In this document: positions 1-54,384 of the stretch, one piece after another | Position numbering within the stretch: the first letter of the stretch is position 1 | Layout of the letters: every line of letters starts with the position of its first letter | Origin: Gaiellaceae bacterium | GTDB lineage: Bacteria > Actinomycetota > Thermoleophilia > Gaiellales > Gaiellaceae | NCBI GenBank assembly: GCA_035762825.1 | Contig: DASUCI010000054.1 | Location: 1 to 54,654, forward strand | Length of the DNA stretch: 54,654 bases | Reading direction: 5' to 3' | Notes under the pieces: generated by a model | What the model saw: the letters and a program-made list of their open reading frames with translations, nothing else | What the model was told of the DNA's origin: nothing | Database searches by the model: none | Position numbers and translations under genes: made by a program

Positions 1-198
1 GATCGCGCGGTTCCGGGCCGTGGTGACGAGCCAGGCGCGCGGGTTCGCGGGCGTCCCCTCCGTCGGCCATCGCGCCGCAGCGATCGCGAACGCCTCCTGT
101 GCGGCCTCCTCGGCGAGGTCGAAGTCGCCGAGGAGGCCGATCAGGCTGGCGAGGACGCGTCCCCACTCCTCGCGAAAAACCTGCTCGAGGATCGCTAT
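1..198 (-). CDS. ECF-type RNA polymerase sigma factor, N-terminal part (gene runs off the left edge)
   Basis: Minus-strand translation reads IAILEQVFREEWGRVLASLIGLLGDFDLAEEAAQEAFAIAAARWPTEGTPANPRAWLVTTARNRAI, a sigma-70 region 2 signature of the ECF sigmas usually found next to YCII genes. It is absent from the ORF track because it has no stop in the window. The start codon is unresolved (see findings). Confidence 0.7.
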   Translation of the reverse strand, partial: MAILEQVFREEWGRVLASLIGLLGDFDLAEEAAQEAFAIAAARWPTEGTPANPRAWLVTTARNRAI

Positions 199-554
199 GC
201 CTCCTTGAGCGGGCGGATCTCGATGCCACCGCCCATGCGGGCAGCGGGGATGCTGGCCGCGAGCTCGATCGCCGCGTCGAGGTTGTCGGCCTCGAAGAAC
301 AGGTAGCCGCCGAGCGCCTCCTTCACGGCGACGAACGGTCCGTCGGTGGTCAGCGTCTTGCCGTTCTCGACGCGAACCGTGGTGGCGAGCTCTGGCGGCT
401 CCATCCACTCGCCGGGAGTCACGCCGGGCGCTTCGTTGATCGCCTGGTACGCGGCGAAGACGGCGTTCTGCTCGTCCTGCGAGAGCTGTCCCCAGGCCTC
501 GGGGTCGCTCGGCGTCGGGGTGGTGCCCTGGTGGATCAGCAGCAGGTACTTCAT
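195..554 (-). CDS. YCII-related domain protein
   Basis: C-terminal 119 aa of ORF 195..977 (MKYLLLIHQG...TDGPFVAVKEALGGYLFFEADNLDAAIELA) matches the YCII/DGPF fold signature. ATG at 554..552. The upstream 141 aa of the ORF are Arg/Pro-rich shadow sequence. Confidence 0.8.
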   Translation of the reverse strand: MKYLLLIHQGTTPTPSDPEAWGQLSQDEQNAVFAAYQAINEAPGVTPGEWMEPPELATTVRVENGKTLTTDGPFVAVKEALGGYLFFEADNLDAAIELAASIPAARMGGGIEIRPLKEA

Positions 555-574
555 GTCGTCCTCCTTCTCCTCGA

Positions 575-1759
575 TTGTCGTCTCTAGACGAACGGCGAGC
601 GAGCGAGAGGACATCTCGCCCGGACGAGTACGCTCGGCTCGTGGCCGTCCACCGGCTGAGCAAGGACGAGGCTCGGCGGATCGCGATCCGTGCTCAGTTG
701 CTGGACGCGAGCCGCCCCACCGACCTCCTCGAGGTCGTGCGCCACCTGACCTTCCTCCAGCTCGACCCGACGGCGGCGATCGCGCCGAGCGCCGATCTGG
801 TCGCGTGGACGCGGATGGGCGGCGCGTATCGGCCGGAGCAGCTGACGCAGGCGCTCGAACAGGACCGAACGCTGTACGAGGTCCGCGCGTACGTCCGCCC
901 CACGGCCGACCTCGGTCTCTACCTCGAGTCCATGGCGGCCTGGCCGTACGCGAAGGACGACAAGCGGTACTCGCCACCGCCGGGACCGATCGCCCAGCGG
1001 TGGCTCGAGAAGAACGAGTCGTTCCGCCAGGACGTTCTTCGACGCCTGCGGGATGCCGGGCCGCTGATGTCGCGAGACATCCCTGACACGAGCGTCGTGC
1101 CCTGGCAGTCGACCGGCTGGACCGGGAACCGCAACGTCACGCAGATGCTCGAGTTCCTGAACTCGCGCGGCGAGGTCGCGATCGCCGGCCGCAGCGGTCG
1201 GCAGCGACTCTGGGATCTCCCCGAGCGTGTGTACCCGCGCGCGAAGGCCGTTCCGCTCGCGAAAGCGCGCCGAGCGCTCGCCGAGCGGCGGATGCGTTGG
1301 TTGGGCATCTCCCGGCCCGAGGTCATCGGCGTCAGCGGTGAGCGCTACCACGAAGTGGTGCACGGCGAGCCCGCGGAGGTGGAGGGAACCGCGGGCGAGT
1401 GGGTGGTCGACCCGGCCGCTCTCGGCCAGGACTTCGAGGGCCGCACGGCGCTCCTGTCGCCGTTCGACCGGCTGATCCACGATCGCGTTCGCGCCCAGGA
1501 GCTCTTCGGCTTCGAGTACTACCTCGAGATGTACAAGCCGGCCGCCAAGCGGCGCTGGGGGTACTTCGCGCTGCCGATCCTTCACGGCGACCGGCTCGTC
1601 GGGAAGCTCGACGCGACCGCCGACCGGAAGGCGTCGACACTCCGCGTGCACGCGATCCACGAGGACGTCCGCTTCACGCGTCCGATCACGAAGGGCGTGC
1701 GGGCCGAGATCGACGCGCTCGCCTCGTGGCTCGGCCTCGAGAACGTCGTGCTCGACTAG
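575..1759 (+). CDS. winged-helix DNA-binding protein, YcaQ/DUF1006 family (crosslink-repair glycosylase-like)
   Basis: 394-aa ORF with a YcaQ-like N-terminus (LSKDEARRIAIRAQLL) and C-terminus (YFALPILHGDRLVGKLDATADRK). The TTG at 575 lies only 20 nt from the divergent YCII start, so GTG 641 is a plausible true start. Confidence 0.7.
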   Translation: MSSLDERRASERTSRPDEYARLVAVHRLSKDEARRIAIRAQLLDASRPTDLLEVVRHLTFLQLDPTAAIAPSADLVAWTRMGGAYRPEQLTQALEQDRTLYEVRAYVRPTADLGLYLESMAAWPYAKDDKRYSPPPGPIAQRWLEKNESFRQDVLRRLRDAGPLMSRDIPDTSVVPWQSTGWTGNRNVTQMLEFLNSRGEVAIAGRSGRQRLWDLPERVYPRAKAVPLAKARRALAERRMRWLGISRPEVIGVSGERYHEVVHGEPAEVEGTAGEWVVDPAALGQDFEGRTALLSPFDRLIHDRVRAQELFGFEYYLEMYKPAAKRRWGYFALPILHGDRLVGKLDATADRKASTLRVHAIHEDVRFTRPITKGVRAEIDALASWLGLENVVLD

Positions 1760-4155: not shown

Positions 4156-6168
4156 ATGACGGCGAGCGAGCAGGCGACCCGCACGTACGGCCATTCCACC
4201 GCCTGGAAGCCCGAGCGGCCGACGTGGCGTGCGTTCCCCCTGGTCGTCTCCTGGCTCGCCACGGGCATCGCGCTGATGGTCGCCTCGTGGGTGCTTCCGG
4301 GCGTCGACGTCAAGAGCTTCTGGGGTGCGCTCCTCGTCGCCGCGATCGTCGCCGCGCTGAATGCGGTCATCCCGCCGGTGCTCGCCGCCTTGCGGTTGCC
4401 GCTCACGCTCGTGCTGGGCTTCCTGCTCGTCCTGATCGCGGACGCGCTGATGCTGCAGCTCGCAGCCGCAGTGGCCGAGAGCGTGCTCACGGTCGACAAC
4501 TTCGGTTGGGCGCTCCTCGCGGCTCTCGTCGTCGCGGCCGTGAGCGTCGTGCTCGCGGTGCTGCTCGGCTCGGACGACATGGGATCGATCCGCACCGCGC
4601 ACCGGATCGCGCGCCGGCAGGGAATCATCGCCTCGACCGACGTTCCGGGAATCGTCTACCTCGAGATCGACGGCCTCGCAAAGCCCGTGCTCCAGCGCGC
4701 GATGCGAGACGGCAATGCCCCCAACATGGCGCGCTGGCTGCGCGAGACGCACTCACTCGCCGAGTGGGAGACCGATCTCTCCTCGCAGACGGGCGCCAGC
4801 CAGGCGGGCATCCTCCTGGGATCCAACGAGGACATCTCCGCGTTTCGCTGGGTGGAGAAGGAGACCGGGACGATGATGACGTGCTCCGCGCCCGCCGATT
4901 GCGCCGAGCTCGAGCGTCGGCTCGGGACGGGCATCGGTCTCCTCGTCGACGGCGGCGCGAGCCGCGGCAACCTGCTCTCCGGCGAGGCGGAGGCCGTGAT
5001 CCTCACCGTGAGCCGGATGGAGGCGGAGAAGAAGTCCAACCCCGGCTACCGGGCGTTCTTCGCGAACGGCGACAACGCGACGCGCACGCTCGTCCTGTTC
5101 GGCTGGGAGGTCATCCTCGAATGGGTCGCGGCTCTGCGCGCGATCCGCCGCGACGTGCAACCGCGCGGCCACCGCGGCGGCATCTACCCGCTGATGCGAG
5201 GCGCCCTCTGCGTCTTCGTGCGCGACCTGATCGTGTCGGGCGTGCTCACCGACATCATGCGAGGGCGCCCCGCGGTGTACGCCACGTTCTCGAGCTACGA
5301 CGAGGTGGCGCATCACTCCGGTCTCGAGCGTGCGGACACGCTCGAGGCGCTGCGCAAGCTCGACGACCACTTCGCGCACATCGAGCGTGCCTGCCGGTAT
5401 GCGCCGCGGCCGTACGAGATCGTGGTCCTCTCCGACCACGGGCAGACCCAGGGAGCCACTTTCAAGCAGCGGAACGGATACGGGCTCGACGAGCTCGTGG
5501 AGCGCTCGCTCTCGCGCGGCGACGTCACCGGGATCGAAGGCGGGGACGAGCAGCACTCCATGGTCGGGCTCGCGGTCACCGAGGCAACGGGTACGACGTC
5601 GGGAAAGAAGAAGCCCAAGAACGACGTCTCCGACCGCGACGTCGTGGTGCTCGGCTCGGGCAACCTCGGCCTCGTCTACCTCATGGAGGAGCGCCGCCGG
5701 CTCACGATGGAGGAGATCGACGAGCGCCACCCGGAGCTCCTGCCGGCTCTCCGCTCGCATCCGCACGTCGGCTGGCTGCTCGTGCGCTCCTCCGAGCACG
5801 GGGCGGTCGCGCTCGGGGCCAACGGCACGCACTACCTCAGCGAGGGTCGCGTCGACGGCGAGGATCCGCTGGCGCACTTCTCACCGCATGCGCCGCAGCA
5901 CCTGCTGCGCACCGACGGCTTCGAGCACGTCGGCGACATCATGGTCGGCAGCTTCTACGACCCGGATCTCGACGAAGGCTGTGCCTTCGAGGAGTTGATC
6001 TCCTTCCACGGCGGCATCGGCGGGCTCCAGACGAGGCCGTTCATCCTGCACCCGACGCACCTCGAGGTCCCGGCCGGGCTCATTCTGGGCGCAGCGAGCG
6101 TCCACGGGATCCTCGCGGGGTGGAGGCAGCAGCTCCACTCGACGCAGACCGCCGACGCATCGCGCTAG
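4156..6168 (+). CDS. fusion protein: 4-TM holin-family-IV-like (DUF360) membrane domain + alkaline phosphatase/nucleotide pyrophosphatase-like domain
   Basis: The N-terminus has 4 TM helices (VSWLATGIALMVASWVLPGV..., AALNAVIPPVLAALRLPL...). The C-terminal ~500 aa (YLEIDGL...SDHGQTQG...HGG) resemble type I phosphodiesterase/AlkP-superfamily proteins. Confidence 0.65.
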   Translation: MTASEQATRTYGHSTAWKPERPTWRAFPLVVSWLATGIALMVASWVLPGVDVKSFWGALLVAAIVAALNAVIPPVLAALRLPLTLVLGFLLVLIADALMLQLAAAVAESVLTVDNFGWALLAALVVAAVSVVLAVLLGSDDMGSIRTAHRIARRQGIIASTDVPGIVYLEIDGLAKPVLQRAMRDGNAPNMARWLRETHSLAEWETDLSSQTGASQAGILLGSNEDISAFRWVEKETGTMMTCSAPADCAELERRLGTGIGLLVDGGASRGNLLSGEAEAVILTVSRMEAEKKSNPGYRAFFANGDNATRTLVLFGWEVILEWVAALRAIRRDVQPRGHRGGIYPLMRGALCVFVRDLIVSGVLTDIMRGRPAVYATFSSYDEVAHHSGLERADTLEALRKLDDHFAHIERACRYAPRPYEIVVLSDHGQTQGATFKQRNGYGLDELVERSLSRGDVTGIEGGDEQHSMVGLAVTEATGTTSGKKKPKNDVSDRDVVVLGSGNLGLVYLMEERRRLTMEEIDERHPELLPALRSHPHVGWLLVRSSEHGAVALGANGTHYLSEGRVDGEDPLAHFSPHAPQHLLRTDGFEHVGDIMVGSFYDPDLDEGCAFEELISFHGGIGGLQTRPFILHPTHLEVPAGLILGAASVHGILAGWRQQLHSTQTADASR

Positions 6169-6235: not shown

Positions 6236-7762
6236 CTAGTTCTCCGCGTTAAGCTTGTAGACGACGAGCTGGGCCTTCTGTCCCGCTCCTTGCGGGAAGC
6301 CGGCAGCCGTCACGAGCGTGTCACCCGCGATGGCCAGCGGCGAGTTCGTGCCGGCGCCGAGGTCGCTCGTCCAGACCTCGCTTCCGTCCTCGATGGAATA
6401 CGCGCGCACCTTGCCGTCGAACGTCGTCGTGAAGACGAGGTCGTTCGATACGGTCATCGCGCCGAAGGGCATCTGGTCGAGCTCCTGCTCCCACCTGATC
6501 TCCCCGGTCCCGACATCGAGAGCGACGATCGTCCCGGTGCCCTCGGTGAAGTCGACGGGCAGCACCGGCTTGTCGAGGTCAGCCGCCGTCTTCACGTGCC
6601 CCGGCAGGTTGACCACCGCCGCGTAGACGACGCCGTCGCTCACCGCCATGTTGGTCTCGACGCCTCCGTAGGGTCCCGGGTAGACGTCGAACGGAATCTC
6701 CGGGAGGTCGAGCGCTCCCTCGAGCTGCGCCGCGCCGTCGTCGTCGTGCCCGTTGTGCGTCCCGACCGGTCTCTTCCAGACGAGCTCACCGCTGTCGCGG
6801 TCGAGCGCGTAGACGATGCCCATCTTGCCCGAGACGATCGCCAGGTTCGTCCCGTCGTGCTCGACGAGGATCGGCGAGAGGTGAAGATCCCAGTCCCAGA
6901 AGTCGTTGGTGACGGCCTGGTAGTACCAGTCCAGCTCGCCCGTCTCGGCGTTCAACTTGACCGCGCTGTCGGTGTAGAGCCGCTGGTTCTGGAACCTCTC
7001 CGGTGAGTTGTGCGAGTAGTAGCCGTTCGCGACGCCGAAGTAGACGTTGCCCTCGTCGTCGAGTGCGGGCGTGTTCCACGCACCGCCCGACGGAGTCTCG
7101 TCACCCTCGGGCTCGTCGGTGGTGTCGAACCTCCATAGCTCCGTGCCGTCGGTGGCGTCGAGCGCGAGAAGGTCGCCGCCCCCTGCCTTCGCCGCCTCCG
7201 AGAGGTAGAGGACGCCGTCGCGCACGGCGGGCTGGATCGTGAGCCCGAGGTTCTGACCTTCGGCGACCCCGAACTTGCCCGTGACGATCTGCTTCTTCCA
7301 GATCTCATCGCCCGCCTCCGCATCGAGCGCGAACGCGTCCTGGTCGGTGACGCCGTAGACGGTGCCGTCCTCGTACGCGAGGCCGTTGGGCCCGATCACC
7401 GGCTTGTCGTAGGTGACGTCCCAGAGCTTCTCTCCCGTCTCCAGGTCGTAGGCGAAGACATTGGAGCCGAGGTCCTGAACGTAGGCGACGCCGTCCTCGT
7501 CGATCAAGGGTGTCGCGGCGAAGAATCCGAATGGCCCCCGGCCGGTGAGCGGCTCGGTGCTGGCGATGCTCAGGTCGGCGACGTTGCTCGAGTCGATCTC
7601 CGAGCTCGCGACCCGCGTGTTGGCGTCGTCGGCGTTGGGCTCGAGCCAGGATGCGCTCGAGTCGCCGCCGCCACCACAGCCGGCGAGTGCGGCGAGCGCG
7701 AGCGCTGTCGCTGCGCCGGCGAGCGCGACCACCGTGCGCTTGCTTCTCGGTCTGACGTTCAT
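6236..7762 (-). CDS. lipoprotein with PQQ-like (BamB-like) beta-propeller repeats
   Basis: 508-aa ORF with a signal peptide plus lipobox (LAALAGCGGG) and repeated GxxYxxxxDGxxxAxDxxTGxxxW-type propeller blades. Confidence 0.7.
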   Translation of the reverse strand: MNVRPRSKRTVVALAGAATALALAALAGCGGGGDSSASWLEPNADDANTRVASSEIDSSNVADLSIASTEPLTGRGPFGFFAATPLIDEDGVAYVQDLGSNVFAYDLETGEKLWDVTYDKPVIGPNGLAYEDGTVYGVTDQDAFALDAEAGDEIWKKQIVTGKFGVAEGQNLGLTIQPAVRDGVLYLSEAAKAGGGDLLALDATDGTELWRFDTTDEPEGDETPSGGAWNTPALDDEGNVYFGVANGYYSHNSPERFQNQRLYTDSAVKLNAETGELDWYYQAVTNDFWDWDLHLSPILVEHDGTNLAIVSGKMGIVYALDRDSGELVWKRPVGTHNGHDDDGAAQLEGALDLPEIPFDVYPGPYGGVETNMAVSDGVVYAAVVNLPGHVKTAADLDKPVLPVDFTEGTGTIVALDVGTGEIRWEQELDQMPFGAMTVSNDLVFTTTFDGKVRAYSIEDGSEVWTSDLGAGTNSPLAIAGDTLVTAAGFPQGAGQKAQLVVYKLNAEN

Positions 7763-7853: not shown

Positions 7854-8462
7854 TTAGGGCGCAATTCCAAGCCAGATCGTCTCCAGCAGCTCCTCCGCGT
7901 ACCGCTCCGTGACGGGCGGGAGGCCGAGCGGGAGCAGGCGGACGAACGGCGGGCCGCCGACGAGATCGGCGACGTGCTCGACGTCGGCGTCGCGGCGCAG
8001 CTCGCCCCGCTCGCGGGCCTCCTCCAGCAGGTCGACGAGCGCCTGGCGGCGTGGATGCACCACTCGCTCGAGATACACGCGCGCGAACTCCGGGTTTCGC
8101 TGGAGCTCGCCGAGTACGACGGGCAGAATCCGACCGAACAGCGGGTCGGAGAAGAGACGGACGAGGTCCCGGATTCGTTCGAGCAGGCGCGAGCGGAGGT
8201 CGCCCTCCCCCTGCACGACGTCGAGCTCGGATGTGAGCTCGTGCAGCGCGTCGGCGATCAGCTCCTCCTTCGAGGCCCAGCGCCGGTAGATCGTGTTCCT
8301 ACCGACCCCGGCGCGGTCGGCGATCGCGTCGATCGTCGTCGCCTGGAACCCCCGCTCCGCGAGCAGCGCGAGGGTCGCCTCGAGTATCGCTTCGCCCGCG
8401 GATGCACGTCGCGGGCGGCCGCGTCGACGCGGCCGCCGCTCCACCTCGCGGCTCTCCGGCAC
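7854..8462 (-). CDS. TetR/AcrR family transcriptional regulator
   Basis: C-terminal ~200 aa of ORF 7854..8903 contain the TetR HTH (ILEATLALLAERGFQATTIDAIADRAGVGRNTIYRRWASKEEL). The start is uncertain: GTG 8462 is chosen, TTG 8489 is the alternative. Confidence 0.75.
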   Translation of the reverse strand: MPESREVERRPRRRGRPRRASAGEAILEATLALLAERGFQATTIDAIADRAGVGRNTIYRRWASKEELIADALHELTSELDVVQGEGDLRSRLLERIRDLVRLFSDPLFGRILPVVLGELQRNPEFARVYLERVVHPRRQALVDLLEEARERGELRRDADVEHVADLVGGPPFVRLLPLGLPPVTERYAEELLETIWLGIAP

Positions 8463-8507
8463 GGGCTGCGGGATGTCCTCACCGGGCAAACCTGGAGGAT
8501 CCTCGCA

Positions 8508-8553
8508 GAAGCCCTCTGACAGACTCGAAACCGTCCACCGCGTCTTACGGTGC
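8508..8553 (-). pseudogene. degenerate 3' half of a tRNA-Thr (att-like direct repeat of the tRNA at 54545..54617)
   Basis: Plus strand 8508..8539 (GAAGCCCTCTGACAGACTCGAAACCGTCCACC) aligns with 54543..54573 (GAAGCCCTCTGACGGACTCGAACCGTCGACC). There are 29 identities, 2 substitutions and a 1-nt indel. Weaker similarity (CTTAC, GGTGC blocks) continues to 8553. Confidence 0.6.
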
Positions 8554-9791
8554 CCATGACACTCGCGAATGCCATTCCCGCCGATCTTCTCACGCCCCTG
8601 GGGGCATACCTTCGCCTCCGCGGTGACGAGGGCGGCAGCTTCCTGCTCGAGTCGGTCGAGCGGGGGCGACTCGGCCGCAATTCGTTCGTCGGGTGGGGCG
8701 CACGGCTGGTCGGGCTCGAGGAGGCGGAGACGCTCGGGGCCCCTGTCGTCGGCTACGTCTCGTACGACTACGCGGCCAAGCTCGAGCCGACGGTGCCGAT
8801 GCCCGCCGAGGGACCGGACTTCCCGGAGAGCTGCTTCGTCGTCGCCGAGACGCTCGTCCGCTTCGATCACGGCGCGGGTGTTGCCGAGGTGCTCGCCGGC
8901 CAACCGGAGGACGTCGCACGCACGCTCGCAGAGCCGCTCGTCGCGGCGGAGGGAGGAGGTGGCCGACGCGGGCCGCTGCGCCGCTTCCCCTCTCAGTCGC
9001 GCTACGAGGACATGGTCCGGATCTGCCAGGACTCCATCAGAGCCGGTGACGCCTATCAGGTAGTGCCGTCCCAGCGGGCCGAGAGACCCACCTCGGCGTC
9101 AGCGCTCGCGCTCTACCGCGCGCTTCGCCGTGTCAACCCCTCGCCGTACCTCTTCCTGCTCGAGCTCGACGGGCTCGCGCTCGTCGGCTCGTCCCCGGAG
9201 CGGCTCGTCGCGTGCGAGGACGGACGGGCGAGCGTCTGTCCCATCGCGGGTACCACGACCCCCGATGACGGTGACACCGAGCGCCTGCTCTCGTCCGAGA
9301 AGGATCGTGCGGAGCATGTGATGCTGGTCGACCTCGGCCGCAACGACCTCTCCCGCGTCTGTCGCGGGGGGACGGTTCGGGTCACCCGCTTCATGGACGT
9401 CGAGCGCTTCTCGCACGTCTCGCACCTCGTCTCGGAGGTCTCGGGAGAGCTCCGTGACGGGGTCACGCCGTTCGACGTGCTGCGGGCGTGCTTCCCGGCC
9501 GGCACGGTCACGGGCGCTCCGAAGGTTCGTGCGATGCAGATCATCTCCGAGCTCGAGGAGTACCGTCGTGGCCCGTACGCCGGAGCCGTCGGCTACGTGC
9601 TCCCGGGAGGCTCGATGGACACCTGCATCGCCCTGCGTACGATCGTGCTCTCGGACGGAATCGCGCGACTTCAGGCCGGTGCCGGCGTCGTTGCGGACTC
9701 GCAGCCCGAGGCCGAGCACCGCGAGTGCCTTGCAAAGCTCGCAGCGCTCGAGAAGGCGATCGACGTGGCCGAGGCGGAGTACGCCGCATGA
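8550..9791 (+). CDS. trpE: anthranilate synthase component I
   Basis: 413-aa ORF with the LLESVE...GR(N)SF feedback motif and the chorismate-binding C-terminal domain (GTVTGAPKVRAMQII..., GPYAGAVGY). GTG 8550, alternative ATG 8556. A PabB-type function is not excluded. Confidence 0.8.
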   Translation: MPMTLANAIPADLLTPLGAYLRLRGDEGGSFLLESVERGRLGRNSFVGWGARLVGLEEAETLGAPVVGYVSYDYAAKLEPTVPMPAEGPDFPESCFVVAETLVRFDHGAGVAEVLAGQPEDVARTLAEPLVAAEGGGGRRGPLRRFPSQSRYEDMVRICQDSIRAGDAYQVVPSQRAERPTSASALALYRALRRVNPSPYLFLLELDGLALVGSSPERLVACEDGRASVCPIAGTTTPDDGDTERLLSSEKDRAEHVMLVDLGRNDLSRVCRGGTVRVTRFMDVERFSHVSHLVSEVSGELRDGVTPFDVLRACFPAGTVTGAPKVRAMQIISELEEYRRGPYAGAVGYVLPGGSMDTCIALRTIVLSDGIARLQAGAGVVADSQPEAEHRECLAKLAALEKAIDVAEAEYAA

Positions 9792-10351
9792 AGATCCTGA
9801 TGCTCGACAACTACGACTCGTTCACGTGGAACCTGGTCCACCTGTTCGAAGAGCTCGGCGCGGAGGTCGTCGTCCATCGCAACGATGCGATCACGGTGGA
9901 GGAAGCTGAGGCTCTCCGGCCGGACCGGCTCGTCGTCTCGCCCGGGCCGGGCCGTCCGGCTGACGCAGGTGTCTCGGTGCAGCTCATCCGCGCGCTCGGT
10001 CCGAGCGTGCCCACGCTCGGCGTCTGCCTCGGCCACCAGGCGATCGTCGAGGCCTTCGGCGGCTCCGTCGGGCAAGCGCGGGCGCTCCTCCATGGCAAGG
10101 CCAGCCGCGTTCATCACGACGGGCAGGGGATCTTCGCAGGGCTTCCCGAGGAGATCGAGGCCGGCCGCTACCACTCGCTCGCGGCGGTCGTGGTGCCCGA
10201 CGACCTCCTCGTGACGGCGCGCACCGAAGACGGCGAGGTCATGGCCGTCAGGCACCGAGCCCACCGGATCGAGGGCGTGCAGTTCCACCCGGAGTCGGTT
10301 CTGACGGAGACCGGCAACGCGATGGCGCAGAACTTCCTTCGCTCCTCCTAG
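9788..10351 (+). CDS. trpG: anthranilate synthase component II / glutamine amidotransferase
   Basis: MKILMLDNYDSFTWNLV...GVCLGHQAI...VQFHPES is the class I GATase triad. ATG 9788 overlaps the trpE stop (ATGA). Confidence 0.85.
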   Translation: MKILMLDNYDSFTWNLVHLFEELGAEVVVHRNDAITVEEAEALRPDRLVVSPGPGRPADAGVSVQLIRALGPSVPTLGVCLGHQAIVEAFGGSVGQARALLHGKASRVHHDGQGIFAGLPEEIEAGRYHSLAAVVVPDDLLVTARTEDGEVMAVRHRAHRIEGVQFHPESVLTETGNAMAQNFLRSS

Positions 10352-10644
10352 CCGCCGGGCGCGCCGCCGCGCGAGACCTCGCGCTTCATGAGATCGAGGA
10401 GCTCGCGGAAGACCTCCCGCAGGCCCGACTCGGACAGCGGTCCGCCGTTGGCCGCGACGAGCTCGTCGAGAATCTGACGCTCGCGGTCGGGGTCGACGAA
10501 CGCAAGCCCGTGCTCCTCCTTGTAGCGCTTGAGCTCGCCGACGAGCGCGAGCCGGGAGTTGATCGCCTCCAGGATCGTGCGGTCGAGGTCCGAGATCTCG
10601 TCGCGAAGCCGGTGGATGGGGGCGTGAGAGTGCGGGTCGTTCAT
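10348..10644 (-). CDS. chorismate mutase, small AroQ type
   Basis: 98 aa (RLRDEISDLDRTILEAINSRLALVGELKRYKEEHGL..DPDRERQIL) form a single CM_2 helical domain. ATG 10644 overlaps the pheA stop (ATGA). Its stop overlaps the trpG stop in a CTAG. Confidence 0.8.
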   Translation of the reverse strand: MNDPHSHAPIHRLRDEISDLDRTILEAINSRLALVGELKRYKEEHGLAFVDPDRERQILDELVAANGGPLSESGLREVFRELLDLMKREVSRGGAPGG

Positions 10645-11507
10645 CGTCCGTTCGCAGGGTAGGACCCGAAGACGCGAAGCTGTCTCGTGCACCTGCGCAG
10701 CTCGCGCAGAGTCTCGCTCACGATCGCGTCGAGCGGGTGGCCGTCCAGCACCGCATCGAAGCGGTAGCGCCAGGGGGAGTGCGGAATCGGCCGAGAAACG
10801 AGCTGCAGGAGGTCGATGTCGTGGCGCGCGAAGGGCTCGAGCGCCCGGTAGAGCGCGCCCGGCTGGTGATCGGTGACGAACGAGAAGGCGGTGCGCCAGG
10901 GTTCGCCGTTCGCGTCGAGACGCATGTACGTCGCGATCGCGACGAAGCGCGTGTACGCCTCCGGATGATCGCCGACGTCGTCGGCGATCAGAGTCAGCCC
11001 GTGCAGCACGGCGGCACGCTCGCTCGCGATTGCGACCTCCGTCGGATCGCCGTGCGTCGCGACCTGAGCGGCCGCATCAGCGGTCGTTGCCGCCGCGATC
11101 GCTGTCGCCCACGGCATGCCGGCGAGGAGCTGCCGACACTGGTCGAGCGCGACCGGATGCGAGTGGACGACGCGGATGTCCTCGACGCGCGTCGGCGCCG
11201 GGCCGACGAGGCAGTGGCGGATCGGCAGGACCGTCTCCGCGGTGATCGCGAGCGGCGAGTCGTACAGGAGGTCGTGCGTCTCCGACACCGGCCCCGCGAG
11301 CGAGCTTTCGATGGGCAGGACCCCGAATGCGACCCGGCCGGACGCTGCCGCCTCGGCGACCGCACTGAAGCTCGGCAGGGGGACGAGCTCTGCGTCCTCG
11401 GGGAACAGGCGGTCGCAGGCAGCGGCACTGTGGGCGCCGTCGCGTCCGGGATAGCCGACGGTGACGGGTGCGTCGTCCGGGGGCAACGGTTCGGGCATCG
11501 AGTGCAT
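10641..11507 (-). CDS. pheA: prephenate dehydratase
   Basis: 288-aa ORF with the PDT domain (VGYPGRDGAHSAAA...FGVLPIESSLAGPV) and a C-terminal ACT domain (TAFSFVTDHQPGALYRALEPFA...SRP). Confidence 0.85.
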   Translation of the reverse strand: MHSMPEPLPPDDAPVTVGYPGRDGAHSAAACDRLFPEDAELVPLPSFSAVAEAAASGRVAFGVLPIESSLAGPVSETHDLLYDSPLAITAETVLPIRHCLVGPAPTRVEDIRVVHSHPVALDQCRQLLAGMPWATAIAAATTADAAAQVATHGDPTEVAIASERAAVLHGLTLIADDVGDHPEAYTRFVAIATYMRLDANGEPWRTAFSFVTDHQPGALYRALEPFARHDIDLLQLVSRPIPHSPWRYRFDAVLDGHPLDAIVSETLRELRRCTRQLRVFGSYPANGR

Positions 11508-11564
11508 GATGGCCGACCCCGCGTCGCTCGACGCACGCCTACGGCTCTCTATCCTTCAGCCCCC

Positions 11565-12995
11565 ATGAGTAGCGCCCCTCTGCGTCGGTCGAGGCCGTTG
11601 GGCCAGCAGACGCCGGACCCGCCCGGGCCGACTTCGCGCCGCGCCGCAGGCGCCGGCGCGTGGACGACGTCGTCGTGGCGTGCGTTCCCCGCCGGGCAGC
11701 AGCCCGACTGGCCCGATCCCGTCGCGCTGGAGGGCGTCCTGGATCGTCTTCGCGGGGTCCCGCCGCTCGTCTTCGCAGGCGAGGCGCGGGCGCTTCTCGC
11801 CGGGCTCGGCGAGGTCTGCGAGGGCCGTGCCTTCCTCTTGCAAGCGGGCGAGTGCGTCGAGTCGTTCCGGGACGTCTCGGCTCCGGCGATTCGCGAGAGG
11901 CTGAAGGTGCTGCTGCAGATGTCGGCCGTACTCACCTACGGAGCGATGCTCCCGGTGGTGAAGGTGGGCCGCCTCGCAGGGCAGTTCGCGAAGCCGCGCA
12001 CCGAGCCGACGGAGACGGTCGACGGTGTCGAGCTGCCGTCCTTCCGCGGGCACGTCGTGCACTCCGACGAGCCGACACTCGAAGCGCGAACCCCCGATCC
12101 CGAACGGCTCCTCCAGGGTTACTACCAGGCGGCGTCGACGCTCAACCTGCTGCGAGCCTTTACGAAGGGCGGCTTCGCCGACCTCACCCTCGTGCACACG
12201 TGGAACCGCGAGTTCGTTGCTGCGTCTCCCGCGGGCCAGCGCTACGAGGCGCTCGCCGACGAGATCGAGCGGGCGCTCCGGTTCATCCAGTCGATCGGGA
12301 TCGATCTCGCGAACGAGCCCAGCCTGCACGAGGTCGACGTCTGGACGAGTCACGAGGGGCTACTGCTCGAGTACGAGGAGGCCCTTACCCGCACCGATTC
12401 GCTCACGGGCCGTCCCTACGACTGCTCGGCGCACATGCTCTGGATCGGGGAGCGGACGCGAGACATCGACGGCGCCCACGTGGAGTTCTTCTCAGGAGTC
12501 GACAACCCGATCGGAGTCAAGCTCGGGCCGACTGCGACCGTCCAGGACGCCGTCGCGCTCGCGGAGCGGCTGAACCCGGGCCGGATCCCGGGCCGCCTGA
12601 CGTTCATCGCGCGCATGGGCGCGGGGCGTGTGCGCGACGTGTTGCCTCCGCTCCTGCGCGCGGTGCAGCAGGCCGCGATTCCGGTCGTGTGGGTGTGCGA
12701 CCCGATGCACGCGAACCTCGTCCGTATGCCGTCGGGGACGAAGACGCGCCGCTTCGACGAGATCATGGAGGAGCTGCACGGCTTCTTCGCGGCGCATCGC
12801 GAGGTCGGCACGTGGCCGGGAGGCGTGCATCTCGAGTTCACGGGAGAGGACGTGACGGAGTGTCTGGGCGGGTCGGAGGCAGTGCTCGAGGACCAGCTCG
12901 ACAACCGCTACGAGACGCTCTGCGACCCGCGCCTGAACGGGCGCCAGTCGCTGGACCTGGCGTTCCGGGTCGCTGAGCTCATGCGGGCCGGCTGA
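11565..12995 (+). CDS. class II 3-deoxy-7-phosphoheptulonate (DAHP) synthase
   Basis: Residues from MSSAPL (ATG 11565) carry class II signatures (WRAFPAGQQPDWPD, RLAGQFAKPR, MLWIGERTR, VWVCDPMHAN). The 276-aa N-terminal extension of ORF 10737..12995 is antisense to pheA and is rejected. Confidence 0.85.
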   Translation: MSSAPLRRSRPLGQQTPDPPGPTSRRAAGAGAWTTSSWRAFPAGQQPDWPDPVALEGVLDRLRGVPPLVFAGEARALLAGLGEVCEGRAFLLQAGECVESFRDVSAPAIRERLKVLLQMSAVLTYGAMLPVVKVGRLAGQFAKPRTEPTETVDGVELPSFRGHVVHSDEPTLEARTPDPERLLQGYYQAASTLNLLRAFTKGGFADLTLVHTWNREFVAASPAGQRYEALADEIERALRFIQSIGIDLANEPSLHEVDVWTSHEGLLLEYEEALTRTDSLTGRPYDCSAHMLWIGERTRDIDGAHVEFFSGVDNPIGVKLGPTATVQDAVALAERLNPGRIPGRLTFIARMGAGRVRDVLPPLLRAVQQAAIPVVWVCDPMHANLVRMPSGTKTRRFDEIMEELHGFFAAHREVGTWPGGVHLEFTGEDVTECLGGSEAVLEDQLDNRYETLCDPRLNGRQSLDLAFRVAELMRAG

Positions 12996-13005
12996 GCGCG
13001 AGCCC

Positions 13006-14094
13006 GTGCGGCTGGCGATCATCGGCACGGGGCTGATCGGCGCCTCCGCCGGGCTGGCGGCGCGCCGCGCGGGGGTGGGCGAGGTCGTCGGCTGGGACGA
13101 CGACCCGAACGCGCTCGGCGTCGCGGTCCAGCGGGAGGCGGTGACCCGGGCGGAGTCCGTGCCGGAAGCGCTGGCGGGGTCTGACGTCGCGCTGGTTGCG
13201 ATCCCCGTCGCCGGACTTCCGGCGGTCGTTCGGAGCGTGCTCGACGTTGCGTCCGGCGCATGTACGGTGACGGATGTCGGATCCACGAAGGGCGCTGTCT
13301 GCGCAGCGGCCGGAAGTGACCCGCGCTTCGTCGGCGGGCATCCGATCTGCGGTGCCGAGACGCGCGGGCCGGAACGAGCGACCGCCGACCTCTTCGTCGG
13401 CGCGACCTGGTTCCTCACCCCGGTGAGCTCCGTGGAGCCGGAGCGCTACCGCACCGTGCACGGCCTGGTCTCCGCGCTCGGCGCACGGCCGGTCGCGATC
13501 GAGCCCGACGCGCACGACCGGCTCGTCGCTGTCACGAGTCACCTGCCGCATGCGCTCGCCAACGTCCTTCTCAATCACGCCGGCGCTGCGCGCATCGAGG
13601 GCCACGACCCCCTCGCCGCGGCCGGAGGGTCGCTGCGCGACATGACCCGCATCGCGGGCGCGAATCCCAGGATCTGGGTCGACATCCTCCTCGAGAACCG
13701 GGAGGCGCTCACCGCCGCGCTTGCCGAGCACCGTCGCCGCGTCGAGCAGCTGGAAGCCGCGTTGGCCGACGGTGACGCCGGCTTCCTCGCGCGCTGGATC
13801 GGCGAGGCGAGCGGCAACCGGCGTCGCATGCTCGACACTGCCTACGAGGACGCGGGCGCCCTCCATCGGGTGCGCGTGCACGTCCCCGACCGTCCGGGCG
13901 TCCTGGCCGGCATCTTCCACGCGCTCGGAGCCGAGCGAATCAACGTCTCCGACTTCGACCTCGAGCACCTCTCGCCCGAGCGAGGCGGCACGCTGACCAT
14001 CCTCGTCACCGGTGAGGCGAGCGCGACGCTTGCTGCGGACCTGCTCGAGGCGCAGGGCTACGGCGTCGTCGTCGCCCCGGTGCTCGAGGAGTAG
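13006..14094 (+). CDS. tyrA: prephenate dehydrogenase with C-terminal ACT domain
   Basis: Rossmann motif IIGTGLIGAS, catalytic region GGHPICG and SHLPH, and a C-terminal ACT-like segment (HVPDRPGVLAGIFHALG). Confidence 0.85.
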   Translation: MRLAIIGTGLIGASAGLAARRAGVGEVVGWDDDPNALGVAVQREAVTRAESVPEALAGSDVALVAIPVAGLPAVVRSVLDVASGACTVTDVGSTKGAVCAAAGSDPRFVGGHPICGAETRGPERATADLFVGATWFLTPVSSVEPERYRTVHGLVSALGARPVAIEPDAHDRLVAVTSHLPHALANVLLNHAGAARIEGHDPLAAAGGSLRDMTRIAGANPRIWVDILLENREALTAALAEHRRRVEQLEAALADGDAGFLARWIGEASGNRRRMLDTAYEDAGALHRVRVHVPDRPGVLAGIFHALGAERINVSDFDLEHLSPERGGTLTILVTGEASATLAADLLEAQGYGVVVAPVLEE

Positions 14095-14107
14095 AAGACC
14101 TCGGGTC

Positions 14108-14587
14108 TCAGCTCACCGCTTGCTTCACGAGCGCGGCGATCCTTGCCTCGTCGGCGGCGGACAGCTTCTTCAGCGCGAACGAGGTCGGCCACATGGTGCC
14201 GTCGTCGAGCTTCGCAGTGTCGTTGAAGCCGAATGTCGCGTACCTCGACTGAAATTTCGACGCCGGCGTGAAGTAGCAGACGACCTTGCCGTCCTGGGCA
14301 TACGCAGGCATCCCGTACCAGGTCTTCGGCCAGAGGTCGGGCGCGCTGGCCGTGACGATCGCGTGGATCCGCTTGGCCATGGAACGATCGGGTCCCGGCA
14401 TCTCGGCGATCTTCGCGAGCAGGTCATTCTCCCCCTCCGCCCTGTTCTTGCTCGCGCGCTCCTCCGCCTTCAGTTCCTTGGCGCGCTCCTTCATCGCAGC
14501 GCGTTCTTCATCCGTGAATCCCTTGGGCTTCTTGCGGCTCGCGGTGGTGCTCTCGGCGGGCTTCTGTGTGCCCTTCCTTGCGCTCAT
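14108..14587 (-). CDS. DUF1801 (YdhG-like) domain protein
   Basis: C-terminal 159 aa of ORF 14108..14803 (start MSARKG at 14587). A Lys/Glu-rich N-terminus is followed by a YdhG-like fold (WYGMPAYAQDGKVVCYF). Confidence 0.6.
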   Translation of the reverse strand: MSARKGTQKPAESTTASRKKPKGFTDEERAAMKERAKELKAEERASKNRAEGENDLLAKIAEMPGPDRSMAKRIHAIVTASAPDLWPKTWYGMPAYAQDGKVVCYFTPASKFQSRYATFGFNDTAKLDDGTMWPTSFALKKLSAADEARIAALVKQAVS

Positions 14588-14704
14588 CCTTCCCCTCCTT
14601 CGCAGGCTCGCCCATGTTCTACCCGCCCGACCCCAACCCCGCAGCACCGATGATTCACTCCACAGGGGCCGTTGGGTTCGCGAAGCAGCCGTCCGGGCCA
14701 GCAG

Positions 14705-14733
14705 TTGACACGACCCGCACAGGGACTGAGAAT
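14705..14733 (+). promoter_or_regulatory. sigma-70-like promoter for the DUF1326/DUF2182 operon
   Basis: TTGACA (14705..14710), a 17-nt spacer, then GAGAAT (14728..14733). It is followed by the RBS AAGGAGG and ATG 14767. Confidence 0.45.
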
Positions 14734-14766
14734 CGCCCTGGCCCATCCGCGGACGAAGGAGGTCAG

Positions 14767-15366
14767 ATGTCCTGGAATCTCGAGGGCAGCTACTTCGAGA
14801 CATGCTCCTGTGAGCTCATGTGCCCGTGCAACTTCTCGTTCGACCACGGCGCGACGTACGACTACTGCCGCGTCACGCTCGTCTTCCACGTCGCCGATGG
14901 GGATGTCGAGGGAACGGATGTCAGCGGACGTACGGTCGCCGTCATTGCGGACACGCCGAAGGTCATGACGGACGGCAACTGGCGTCTCGGCATGTTCGTC
15001 GACGAGGACGCGACCGACGACCAGCTGGAGAAGCTGACCGCCGTTTTCGGCGGGCAGAAGGGCGGGCCGATGGCGGGCCTGGCCCCGCTGATCGGCGAGG
15101 TGCTCGGCGTGGAGCGCGCACCGATCGAGGTTGTCGAGGACGGCCTTCGCCACAGCGTCCGGATCGGAGATGCCGTCGACTTCGAGGTCGAGGACATCGT
15201 TCCGTTCGGCATCGAGACCGGGGAGCCCGCTCGCCTGACGGGTGTCTTCCATCCCGTCGCCTCGGAGTTGACCGCTGCCGAAGCCACCCGATCACAGATC
15301 AGCGCCTTCGGCATCGAGTACGAGGGAAAGACGGGGCTCTCAGCGCCCTTCTCGTGGGCTGCCTGA
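14767..15366 (+). CDS. DUF1326 domain protein
   Basis: MSWNLEGSYFETCSCELMCPCNFS... is the characteristic Cys-rich DUF1326 N-terminus. The RBS AAGGAGG lies 5 nt upstream. Confidence 0.75.
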   Translation: MSWNLEGSYFETCSCELMCPCNFSFDHGATYDYCRVTLVFHVADGDVEGTDVSGRTVAVIADTPKVMTDGNWRLGMFVDEDATDDQLEKLTAVFGGQKGGPMAGLAPLIGEVLGVERAPIEVVEDGLRHSVRIGDAVDFEVEDIVPFGIETGEPARLTGVFHPVASELTAAEATRSQISAFGIEYEGKTGLSAPFSWAA

Positions 15367-15370
15367 GCGC

Positions 15371-16201
15371 GTGATCGCCTCCGCGCACGAGCGCGCTCCG
15401 AACGCCGGGGGTCTCGGGCCTGCATTCGCCGCCGCACGGACACGGCTTGGGCTGATCGCGCTTCTCCTCGCCCTGGCTGCGGCCGGTTGGTGGTGGACGG
15501 TCGCTGAGATGCAGGGGATGGACGGTGGGCCGTGGACGGATCTCGGGACGCTCGCCTGGTTCGTCGGCGTCTGGGTCGTGATGATGGCGGCGATGATGTT
15601 CCCCTCGGTGGCACCGACGGTCGCCCTCTACTCGAGCATGACGAAGAGGCGGTCTCTCGCTCCACCGCTTCTCTTTACGTCCGGCTATCTCGCTGCATGG
15701 ACCAGCATCGGAGTGCTTGCCTTCGTGGTTGCACGCGTGGGCGATCGTGTCTCGGGCGACCTGCTTGCATGGGATCGCGCCGGTCGCTGGATCGCGGGAG
15801 GGACGCTCGTCGTCGCAGCGGCCTACGAGCTCACGCCACTCAAGGACGTGTGCCTTGGCAAGTGCCGCAGCCCGCTCGGCTTCCTGCTCGGATCCTGGCG
15901 GAGCGGACGCGCTGGTGCCCTGCAGATGGGCGTAAGGCACGGGGCCTGGTGCGTTGGCTGTTGCTGGGCGCTGATGGCATCGCTCTTCGCGCTCGGAGTG
16001 ATGAGCGTCGTCTGGATGGCAGTCGTCGCCGGGCTCATCGCGTTCGAGAAGCTGATTCCGTCGCGTCGTGCTGCGACATCTGTCACGGCCGCGATCCTGC
16101 TCGTGCTCGGTGTTCTGATGCTCGCCGCCCCCGACGCCATCCCTGCGCTCACCGTCCCGGCCAGTGGCTCGATGTCCGAGATGGACCAGATGAGTCCCTA
16201 G
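15371..16201 (+). CDS. DUF2182 family membrane protein (predicted metal-binding)
   Basis: 276 aa and multi-TM (WVVMMAAMMFPS..., LKDVCLGKCRSPL, GAWCVGCCWALM). This is the usual partner of DUF1326. Confidence 0.7.
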   Translation: MIASAHERAPNAGGLGPAFAAARTRLGLIALLLALAAAGWWWTVAEMQGMDGGPWTDLGTLAWFVGVWVVMMAAMMFPSVAPTVALYSSMTKRRSLAPPLLFTSGYLAAWTSIGVLAFVVARVGDRVSGDLLAWDRAGRWIAGGTLVVAAAYELTPLKDVCLGKCRSPLGFLLGSWRSGRAGALQMGVRHGAWCVGCCWALMASLFALGVMSVVWMAVVAGLIAFEKLIPSRRAATSVTAAILLVLGVLMLAAPDAIPALTVPASGSMSEMDQMSP

Positions 16202-16257
16202 TCGCCGGGAACCTGCAGCACGGTTGCCGAAGCGACAACAGGACTAGAGTCGGCCGC

Positions 16258-16698
16258 GTGACGCTGCAACGGATGGACAACGTCGGCATCGTGGTCGAGT
16301 CCCTCGATGCCGCAATCTCGTTTTTCGCCGAGCTCGGCCTCGAACTCGAAGGGCGATTCCTGGTGGAAGGAGAGTGGGCAGGGCGCGTCACCGGGCTGGG
16401 TGACCAGCGCGTCGAGATCGCCATGATGCGCACGCCGGACGGCCACAGCCGGCTCGAACTCTCGCGATTTCTCACGCCGCCTACGGTCGCCGATCACCGG
16501 AACGCCCCGGTGAACGCTCTCGGCTACCTACGCGTCATGTTCGCCGTGGACGACATCGACGATACGCTCGCCCGGCTCCGCAAGCACGGTGCGCAACTTG
16601 TCAGTAGCGAAGTGGTCCAGTACGAAGACGTGTATCGGCTCTGTTACGTCCGAGGCCCTGAGGGGATCCTCATCGGGCTGGCGGAGGAGATCGGCTAG
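16258..16698 (+). CDS. VOC (glyoxalase/bleomycin-resistance/dioxygenase) family protein
   Basis: The C-terminal part of ORF 15532..16698 (MDNVGIVVESLDAAISFFAELGLELEG...LRVMFAVDDIDDTLARL) is a single VOC domain. GTG 16258, alternative ATG 16273. Confidence 0.7.
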   Translation: MTLQRMDNVGIVVESLDAAISFFAELGLELEGRFLVEGEWAGRVTGLGDQRVEIAMMRTPDGHSRLELSRFLTPPTVADHRNAPVNALGYLRVMFAVDDIDDTLARLRKHGAQLVSSEVVQYEDVYRLCYVRGPEGILIGLAEEIG

Positions 16699-16826
16699 AC
16701 CGCCGGTCGAGCAGCGGATGGAGCCGTCGGAGGGATTCGTCCTCAGCCGTACGGGCCTCGTGTGGACGCCCGCGGCTTCGATCGACCCAACCGACGATGC
16801 CCTGCGAGCACCGAGACTCGGTCTGA

Positions 16827-17315
16827 ATGGGGCTCACGTTGCGGGAGGTACGGGACGAGGATCTGCCGCTGCTGTTCGAACAGTGGGCGGATCCGGTCGC
16901 CGCACACATGGCCGCGTTTACGGCGCCCGACCACATGGACCGGGACGCATTCGAGCGCCGCTGGTCGAGGCTAAGAGCCGACGAGACGGTGCTCACCCGG
17001 GTCATCGTCGTCGACGACGAGGTTGCCGGAACGATTGGGTCCTGGGGCGACCCCGGCGAGCGCGAGGTGACGTACTGGATCGGCCGGTCCTACTGGGGCA
17101 AAGGGATCGCCACCGATGCCCTCACTGCATTCTTGGCCGTTGATCGGTCGCGGCCGCTCCACGCCCACGTCGCGTCCGACAACGTCGCGTCCCGCCGCGT
17201 CCTCGAGAAGTGCGGCTTCCGCGTGATCGCGACGGAACGAAACGTCGCTGAAGCGCGCTCAGCCGAGATCGAGGAACTTGTGCTGCGCCTCGACGAGCTC
17301 ACTTCCACGGAATAG
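16827..17315 (+). CDS. GNAT family N-acetyltransferase (RimJ/RimL-like)
   Basis: 162 aa with YWIGRSYWGKGIATDAL...ASRRVLEKCGF. Confidence 0.75.
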   Translation: MGLTLREVRDEDLPLLFEQWADPVAAHMAAFTAPDHMDRDAFERRWSRLRADETVLTRVIVVDDEVAGTIGSWGDPGEREVTYWIGRSYWGKGIATDALTAFLAVDRSRPLHAHVASDNVASRRVLEKCGFRVIATERNVAEARSAEIEELVLRLDELTSTE

Positions 17316-17393
17316 GAATGTGACCCCCGCGAGTGCCCGCGCGTGCTCGTGGGCGGCGAGAAATCGCGGGTCTGTGACGCGCACGACGTGCCA

Positions 17394-17421
17394 GTCCTGC
17401 AGGCCCGAAGGCCCACAGGAC
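17394..17421. terminator. imperfect stem-loop between convergent genes
   Basis: GTCCTG-CA-GGCC cgaa GGCC-CA-CAGGAC lies between the stops at 17315 (+) and 17447 (-). Confidence 0.35.
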
Positions 17422-17446
17422 TTGGACTGATAGGCAGCGCGATGCC

Positions 17447-18247: not shown

Positions 18248-18325
18248 CTGCGTCCTCCTTTGGGGGGTCGATTCCAGTGCCGGACGCTAGGAGGCGGTGG
18301 CGCCAGGCGCCTCGTCGGAAGGCCG

Positions 18326-18366
18326 GATTCGGGCTCCGACTCGCCGACGATTCCGGCTCCTACTCG
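18326..18366. promoter_or_regulatory. tandem 18-nt direct repeats in the divergent CPBP / two-component promoter region
   Basis: GATTCGGGCTCCGACTCG (18326..18343) and GATTCCGGCTCCTACTCG (18349..18366) share 16/18 positions with a 23-nt period. Confidence 0.4.
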
Positions 18367-18389
18367 GGTAGGAGGCGCCTTCAGAGAGC

Positions 18390-54360: not shown

Positions 54361-54384
54361 GGGGCGGGCCTTCCTTTCCGCGAT

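Follow-up and report, generated by a model that had tools for sequence, protein, structure and literature searches.

The 54,654-nucleotide contig DASUCI010000054.1 of a Gaiellaceae bacterium (GenBank assembly GCA_035762825.1; the whole contig is referred to as the window) carries an intact tRNA-Thr(GGU) gene close to its right end and, 46 kb away and directly in front of trpE, a decayed copy of the 3′ part of the same gene. A preliminary description proposed that this pair of repeats marks the boundaries of a relic genomic island. Did the whole interval indeed enter through the tRNA gene, or does the fragment record something more limited? The explanation that we favor, at somewhat better than even confidence, is that the fragment is a genuine integration relic, and that the 46 kb next to it forms no coherent island but a mosaic, reworked by deletions and rearrangements.

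The intact gene (54,545 to 54,617, minus strand; ARAGORN, and Rfam RF00005 with 67.4 bits) is the only tRNA called in the window by either ARAGORN or Rfam. It lies 37 nucleotides (nt) before the end of the contig, possibly an assembly break at a repeated or variable tRNA locus. The decayed copy occupies positions 8508 to 8554 (minus strand; alignment and nhmmer). Local alignment of 8508-8539 with 54,543-54,573 returns 29 identities, two substitutions (A/G and C/G) and one extra A in equal orientation, reproducing the match first described; this strong section runs from the T arm through the 3′ acceptor strand and the discriminator to 2 nt beyond the end of the tRNA. Weaker similarity, likewise as described, continues to about 8549-8554, so that 8508-8554 stands against 54,543-54,592, and contains a 6-nt insertion/deletion (indel) at the anticodon. 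Changes in the fragment comprise one T inserted in the T loop, a C>T exchange in the T stem, and a degenerate variable/anticodon region. Because the tRNA gene is on the minus strand and the fragment, also on the minus strand, sits at lower coordinates, the fragment lies on the 3′ side of the gene in direct orientation, which agrees with the earlier claim.

Chance does not account for this match. Aligned locally with the remainder of the window, the tRNA region scores at best 50 on the matching strand and 29 on the opposite one, while 150 shuffles of the tRNA gave a mean of 26.7 (standard deviation 2.6, maximum 36). Searched against the whole window, a 51-nt block profile derived from 129 metagenomic copies matches only the tRNA (E = 2.5e-18) and positions 8509-8544 (E = 5.1e-7). 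Shuffles and profile together exclude a chance origin. The fragment itself is not called by ARAGORN and does not match the Rfam tRNA model even at E ≤ 1, and Rfam and direct-repeat searches of the whole window detected no further tRNA fragment or att copy, only ABC-transporter paralogy. The longest internal direct repeats are two paralogous sets of branched-chain-type ABC transporter genes, at 29.3-32.6 kb and 49.2-52.7 kb, with 60 to 78% identity around the Walker motifs.

The character of the fragment becomes apparent from comparison with metagenomes. Metagenome contigs scanned for the T-arm/acceptor block yielded at least 134 copies at at least 120 loci (L088-L207). Among the matches listed, 31 are intact tRNA-Thr(GGU) genes, 92 are partial copies without the 5′ half, and contig ends truncate the other 11. 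For 43 of these 92 partial copies the identity sets in at tRNA position 31-32, where the anticodon loop has its 5′ edge, and smaller classes begin at positions 26-27 or 40-44. The edge of the window's fragment reconstructs to CAT/GG...GTAAGG of the anticodon loop, the modal edge of the partial copies. Two to three block copies occur at 12 of the listed loci, and at 11 of the 12 all copies are direct. One multi-copy example is L088, with copies at 741, 2912, and 9028; an intact tRNA with downstream partial copies is seen in L121, L125, L132, and L152, the last with three partial copies (755, 1729, and 6697) within 13 kb of a tRNA at 13,540-13,612.

These copies are associated with integrase genes. 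In at least 15 loci the block is followed, after about 20 nt, by the end of a tyrosine recombinase gene (Pfam Phage_integrase), and L176 presents a complete islet of 4.35 kb, consisting of block (43), integrase, RCC1-repeat cargo, and block (4397). Some islets lack an integrase, and the one in L121 holds only an ECF sigma/anti-sigma pair. Islet sizes at tRNA-Thr are about 0.5 to 10 kb, as measured on short contigs. Beside the block, element-side arm motifs of at least three families recur, among them AAACCGTTGCCnnGGTTGCGACCAGTTGCC, GTGATCGCnnGTGnACGCnnGTGAC, and GTGCCCGGCCGTGCCCGCCAGTACCGC. The block is absent from the viral contigs scanned (IMG/VR), which provide no evidence of the elements being phages. 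Judged by these arrays, tRNA-Thr(GGU) is a busy integration hot spot in Gaiellaceae-like soil actinobacteria, in which islets accumulate in tandem. Because metagenomic partial copies mostly start in the anticodon loop, often form direct arrays, and often adjoin integrase genes, the window's fragment is best identified as an att-type scar left by elements whose tyrosine integrase acts on the 3′ part of tRNA-Thr(GGU). The proposed integration of a tyrosine-recombinase element at the tRNA 3′ end is thus backed by the partial copies, the nearby integrases, and the trailers described below. The preliminary description also raised the concern that the fragment could be a dispersed repeat; it does recur at many metagenomic loci, but as att copies at one hot spot, and it is not dispersed within the window.

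The sequences that trail the two tRNA 3′ ends belong to different classes. Behind the intact gene lies TCGCTGAATTACCTGCAAATCGGCA (54,520 to 54,544, minus strand; blastn), a decayed hairpin resembling the integrase-proximal, P′-type arm of elements such as that at L152 6697. Blastn matches to this class of trailer run 24 to 25 nt past the tRNA 3′ end in L152, L174, L202, and L182, and elsewhere it is found behind tRNA-Thr or behind partial copies at the tRNA-proximal end of islets. The trailer of the fragment, T-CTGCGAGGATCCTCC (8490 to 8507, minus strand; sequence comparison), contains a AGGATCCT palindrome, constitutes the sole DNA between the scar and the start codon of a TetR-family gene, and is kept in two related contigs, L208 and L211. 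A CTGC(A/G)A motif right after the discriminator (+1 to +4) is present behind the fragment as TCTGCGAGGATCC; among the matches listed, the motif stands behind 7 of the 31 intact tRNAs and behind 30 of the 92 partial copies, many of them terminal. The two trailers, compared in this way, fit an attL/attR anatomy. Beyond the trailer of about 25 nt, blastn-short searches of the tRNA-proximal spacer and the scar flanks against the att loci returned nothing.

A different origin would be a truncated pseudogene of a second tRNA-Thr, formed independently of any integrase by duplication and later loss of the 5′ half. If the 6-nt deletion is allowed, the similarity can be extended as far as the GCACC of the D/anticodon stem junction, as suits a former complete gene. 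However, the similarity edge in the anticodon loop is the modal edge of att blocks, the trailer classes match the displaced-fragment model, the tRNA model does not recognize the fragment (E ≤ 1), and the 5′ half is absent in all three orthologous copies. We consider a pseudogene very improbable.

L208 (source SRR5678933; 87.5% nt identity over 2.5 kb) and L211 (source JGI 3300037762; 86% over 3.9 kb) have the TetR-scar-trpE junction in common with the window. Since these are independent contigs from other samples with an equal arrangement, the junction is not an assembly artifact. Third-codon identity between the window and these two contigs is 81 to 84%, and on this distribution the scar is old, predating the split from the L208 and L211 lineages. 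Indels and substitutions in the tRNA-like part differ among the three, the AGGATCCT palindrome being common to all, and the tRNA-like part appears unconstrained in this comparison. With its crossover region lost and indels accumulating, the scar is unable to recombine. In all three contigs trpE coding sequence stands where the 5′ half of the tRNA would be. L211 has the first 142 trpE codons intact, while L208 (1-260) has an in-frame stub of 72 codons that fuses an N-terminal section of about 30 amino acids to a C-terminal section of about 42, followed by an apparently intact trpG start; either anthranilate synthase component I has truly been lost there, or the stub is an artifact of the contig.

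The position of the scar could alternatively suggest that the antisense-tRNA sequence is a selected, functional part of the trpE leader or of a TetR operator, acting by pairing with tRNA-Thr or as a regulatory hairpin. It takes up most of the 66 nt that separate the divergent TetR and trpE genes, its 5′ edge is only 1 to 12 nt from the trpE ATG (8556-8558), and the adjacent palindrome is kept in three lineages. Nevertheless, several indels and substitutions separate the window, L208, and L211 in this sequence while the flanking genes are 86 to 88% identical. Its plus-strand fold is no better than that of shuffles (z = +1.25), no Rfam family matches it, and a consensus scan of the scar region revealed neither a sigma-70-like promoter nor a terminator. 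A regulatory function is, in our view, barely credible.

On the tRNA-facing side, the scar abuts a block of aromatic amino acid genes. It begins with trpE (8556 to 9791, plus strand; anthranilate synthase component I, Pfam Chorismate_bind) and trpG (9788 to 10,351, plus strand; glutamine amidotransferase, Pfam GATase, E = 2e-55), which overlaps the trpE stop codon, and continues with genes assigned by Pfam to chorismate mutase (10,348 to 10,692, minus strand), class-II DAHP synthase (10,737 to 12,995, plus strand), and prephenate dehydrogenase (13,006 to 14,094, plus strand). A minus-strand open reading frame (ORF) at 9671-10,288 was rejected as a gene, being an antisense shadow of trpG. Relatives of TrpE were found at 80 loci, all from Gaiellaceae, Gaiellales, or Thermoleophilia metagenome-assembled genomes (MAGs), at 69 to 86% amino acid identity; they are distant, with third-codon identity of 56 to 60%. 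None of the 80 loci has a tRNA-Thr or a fragment of it near trpE. The trpE-trpG pair is kept in nearly all of them, and the block through prephenate dehydrogenase is syntenic in L005 and L007 (tblastn). Because of this synteny, the DNA abutting the scar is best read as housekeeping and ancestrally organized, with the break exactly at the trpE start.

What is missing at this break is a Trp leader/attenuator, present upstream of trpE in most of 14 relatives inspected. It consists of a short ORF with 2 to 4 consecutive Trp codons, followed by a GC hairpin and a T run, as exemplified by MSPASLQAWWWWHRMRGGSLR in L004 (9880-10,000); the leader is found also in L001, L002, L005, L006, L008, L009, L012, and L020 (about 9840-10,000, upstream of trpE). 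The L004 leader, the only one searched, matches no Rfam family. The leader is absent from L007, L010, L014, and L017 and from the window, where the tRNA-like sequence reaches the trpE start codon.

On the other side of the scar, the TetR-family regulator (7854 to 8489, minus strand; Pfam TetR_N and TetR_C_11, likely TTG start at 8489) diverges from trpE and is followed by a PQQ-like beta-propeller protein (6236 to 7762, minus strand; Pfam and homologs), which served as the anchor for finding relatives of the left flank. The TetR protein is 82.5% identical in amino acids to its ortholog in L081 and the PQQ-like protein 85 to 88%, and the TetR-PQQ pair is kept in L081, L208, and L211. L081 contains no trpE; a decayed block copy (E = 4.3e-7) lies in equal orientation 2.1 kb upstream of its TetR-PQQ pair, with DUF899 and an AlkZ paralog in between. 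Further left in the window is an AlkZ-like glycosylase gene (575 to 1759, plus strand; Pfam), 75% identical in nucleotides to L202 2834-3934, a stretch of cargo flanked by att copies (384-427 and 4572-4634). At its left end the window carries a YCII-family gene (190-617, minus strand) that is 87% identical in nucleotides to L081 13,692-14,116, which is located downstream of PQQ there. TetR-PQQ...YCII forms a conserved backbone whose inserts differ between the window and L081; those in the window encode a 670-residue holin-like/phosphodiesterase protein, a 379-residue unknown protein, RibD_C, and the AlkZ-like protein.

This left flank raises the possibility that the scar is not the distal end of anything on its right, but the tRNA-proximal (attL-type or internal) block of a left-side islet, TetR-PQQ-AlkZ-like, that runs past the left end of the window. 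Such an islet would have entered at a secondary site upstream of trpE and displaced the Trp leader, and the intact tRNA would be coincidental or part of the same array. The left flank is variable among relatives, the AlkZ-like gene is cargo in equal relative orientation in L202, L081 shows the succession of decayed block, DUF899, AlkZ paralog, TetR, and PQQ, and the junction falls at the crossover edge of the block. Yet the trailer of the scar is of the CTGC(A/G)A type instead of the P′, integrase-proximal type, no integrase adjoins the scar, TetR-PQQ-YCII is backbone common to L081, and the nearness of the intact tRNA in direct orientation would have to be coincidence. We regard a left-side islet as quite unlikely.

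Can the interval between scar and tRNA itself be recognized as a single island? No integrase, excisionase, transposase, or transfer gene is among the called genes (Pfam), in accordance with the preliminary description. A search for further copies and for cognate integrases, suggested there, likewise came back empty: the block profile finds no third, internal att copy in the window, tblastn with the cognate integrase family gives nothing at or below E = 0.1 in the window, and there is no C-terminal integrase relic beside the tRNA. GC content is uniform as described (0.67 to 0.72 across the window), and neither the GC profile nor the proposed k-mer comparison, carried out on tetranucleotide usage, shows a break at either boundary. 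Measured by Islander-type tests, the locus has a 3′ tDNA fragment on the replicon, in direct orientation 3′ of the tDNA and with an anticodon-loop crossover, but the interval itself holds no gene for a tyrosine integrase. Among the fetched loci there was no orthologous tRNA-Thr locus of a close relative, which could have displayed an empty site.

The content of the interval is heterogeneous. Next to the aromatic amino acid block, the region 14,566 to 20,245 encodes DUF1326, PpoB2, VOC, GNAT, a CAAX protease, a histidine kinase, and a LuxR-type response regulator, and is classed as islet-like cargo by its homologs in att arrays. In or beside tRNA-Thr arrays, the GNAT gene is 93% identical in nucleotides (L187), VOC 89% (L152; also L112 and L132), DUF1326 80% (L174), and the kinase-regulator pair about 65% (L152, L174). 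GC content is about 0.67 here, with a mild dip at 14-21 kb. The VOC/glyoxalase-family protein (16,258-16,698, plus strand, 146 amino acids) is 89 to 93% identical to proteins annotated as those of Ktedonobacteraceae (Chloroflexota), an unusually high cross-phylum identity that suggests recent horizontal spread. No L081 protein is among the VOC homologs listed. A contig of a same-species MAG (L210, GCA_035698105.1) is 99.7% identical to window positions 13,413-18,903. The rest of the interval contains a luciferase-like oxidoreductase, protocatechuate-pathway genes, two branched-chain-type ABC systems, GcvT-like and MTHFR-like proteins, an extradiol dioxygenase, a CoA ligase, MarR, an amidohydrolase, and SDR.

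The SDR gene with its 46-nt conserved upstream region (53,533 to 54,406, minus strand; Pfam and collinearity) is the first gene of the interval beside the tRNA and starts an 11-kb block collinear with L084. From SDR to MaoC (43.5-54.4 kb), the window is 90 to 92% identical in nucleotides to L084 and L085, and this homology ends at 54,406. No tRNA stands beside the SDR promoter in L084-L087, nor any att sequence in L084 and L085, and the module has a different neighbor in each relative. Positions 54,361-54,406 (GACTAGTATCAGGGAACCTGAAATCGCGGAAAGGA...) are kept upstream of SDR in L084-L087, while the DNA beyond differs in every locus; this conserved section is probably a promoter or operator of the SDR/amidohydrolase unit. 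Between it and the tRNA trailer lies a lineage-specific spacer (54,407 to 54,519), delimited by homology with L084-L087 that stops at 54,403-54,406. The spacer has no homolog in the fetched loci and encodes no integrase C-terminus in any frame.

Comparison of the two ends bears on whether they arose together. L208 and L211 share the scar-trpE junction, whereas L084 and L085, which are as diverged from the window as L208 and L211, lack the tRNA-SDR junction; hence scar end and tRNA end would be of different age, and the two ends probably arose at different times, although this comparison is suggestive only. Each relative is represented by a single metagenomic contig, and no link can be drawn between them.

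The analysis shows directly that the fragment is homologous to tRNA-Thr, att-like in character, and old, that mobility genes are lacking, and that synteny is broken; the favored explanation, an integration relic beside a mosaic, is built around these observations. A tyrosine-integrase element would have recombined with tRNA-Thr at the anticodon loop, leaving a duplicate of its 3′ part. The mosaic would then comprise the housekeeping aromatic amino acid block, broken at the scar and with a trpE devoid of its Trp attenuator; about 6 kb of islet-type cargo; and about 33 kb of aromatic-catabolism modules, which in relatives are found in other, non-tRNA contexts. The present order may have been reached by later deletions and rearrangements, possibly including an aberrant integrase-mediated deletion that ended at the core and removed the element's own genes together with the trp leader. 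A single inversion was rejected as a route to the present order, since it does not reproduce the direct orientation. Simple one-step excision and reintegration could not be made to fit, and no specific path was adopted.

Several observations weigh against a mosaic. Both ends of the interval are synteny breaks with att-type sequence in direct orientation, and, if the genome is taken to measure about 3 Mb like one related MAG chromosome, we put the chance of a relic lying within 46 kb of the tRNA by coincidence at a few percent. The contigs L208, L211, L084, and L085 derive from different samples and cannot be assigned to the same genomes, which leaves the argument from junction age suggestive. 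The 72-residue trpE stub of L208 would fit a dispensable, island-borne second copy. The TetR side is either native flank or another islet, the AlkZ-like gene being cargo in L202. A single large insertion or capture of the interval is consequently possible, albeit at low probability.

In its insertion form, this would make 8.55-54.54 kb one old, immobilized island or accreted array, acquired via tRNA-Thr with its catabolic clusters and a second aro set, whose integrase was lost. Besides the synteny breaks and the attL-type and attR-type trailers in direct orientation, such an island would account for the cargo-like genes at 14.5-20 kb, for SDR-module neighbors that vary by relative, and for the stub beside the scar in L208, as expected of a redundant copy. 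Against it stand the lack of any integrase, excisionase, or transfer gene or relic thereof, and of internal att copies or a compositional signal. The scar, moreover, has no P-arm motif, but trpE coding sequence in its place, and a syntenic aro block with a missing Trp leader is not what any normal element end would yield. The scar-trpE junction is found in L208 and L211, while the tRNA-SDR junction is lacking in the equally diverged L084 and L085, and islets at tRNA-Thr measure about 0.5 to 10 kb, though on short contigs. We hold a single island to be unlikely but deserving of weight. Of the relic island initially claimed, the old integration scar stands, but the 46 kb as one island is not supported, given the missing internal att copies, the syntenic aro block, and the probably differing junction ages.

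In its capture form, the 46 kb or the scar-side part of it would be a chromosomal block enclosed between att sites by aberrant integrase recombination, a decidedly unlikely course of events. The partner in such recombination might have been a pseudo-att site that overlaps the start codon of trpE (CCATGG in the anticodon loop versus ...GTCAT in trpE). The product could be an att-flanked unit of aro and catabolism genes, potentially mobilizable in trans, with trpE conceivably rewired from Trp attenuation to a divergent promoter linked to TetR. If true, this would be an example of integrases moving core metabolic DNA.

With the integration relic in a mosaic as the favored explanation, the scar identifies tRNA-Thr(GGU) as a site of very frequent integration in Gaiellales-like actinobacteria that live uncultured in soil. 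It also dates an old rearrangement in which trpE would have been stripped of its Trp-leader attenuator and placed back to back with a TetR gene. For annotators it is a warning that a tRNA repeat alone is no basis for calling a 46-kb aromatic-catabolism "island".

Among known systems, cis-mobilizable elements (CIMEs) are att-flanked remnants that lack an integrase and need two functional att sites. The window interval is similar in having att-derived flanking repeats and no integrase of its own. However, its distal copy has a T-loop insertion, the T-stem C>T exchange, the 6-nt anticodon indel, and no P arm; the core is lost, which makes mobilization in trans implausible.

Genomic islands found by Islander are closer in anatomy. 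There, a displaced tDNA 3′ fragment (attR) marks islands of tyrosine integrases, and the target gene is regenerated (PMC4383910; Williams 2002 cited there). The window shares the 3′ tRNA fragment in direct orientation 3′ of the regenerated gene, a block that starts in the anticodon loop (the Islander "A" sublocation), and the occurrence of this block at the flanks of integrase-bearing islets in related organisms. In contrast to such islands, the interval has no integrase and would not pass the Islander filter, its crossover region is decayed, the trpE start codon takes the place of the island-side arm, and its content includes syntenic housekeeping genes.

The metagenomic arrays, in turn, recall the tycheposons of Prochlorococcus, where islets accrete in tandem at one tRNA and leave degenerate partial tRNAs (bioRxiv 10.1101/2020.12.28.424599); the ssrA islands of Dehalococcoides appear similar to this tandem accretion (PMC3146451). 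As in tycheposons, units with integrase plus cargo and cargo-only units without integrase stand in tandem at tRNA-Thr, with older partial tRNA copies deeper in the array. Here, however, the host is a Gaiellales-like member of the Actinomycetota, the target is tRNA-Thr(GGU), and a single relic is left in the window, 46 kb from the tRNA. tRNA gene fragments are also reported to be mis-annotated as tRNA genes or pseudogenes (PMC9897764). The scar resembles these in being a partial, non-canonical tRNA-like sequence of mobile-element origin, but differs in being too decayed for ARAGORN or the Rfam tRNA model. Seen against these systems, the scar is nothing out of the ordinary: site-specific integration has left behind a tDNA att fragment of known type, now decayed.

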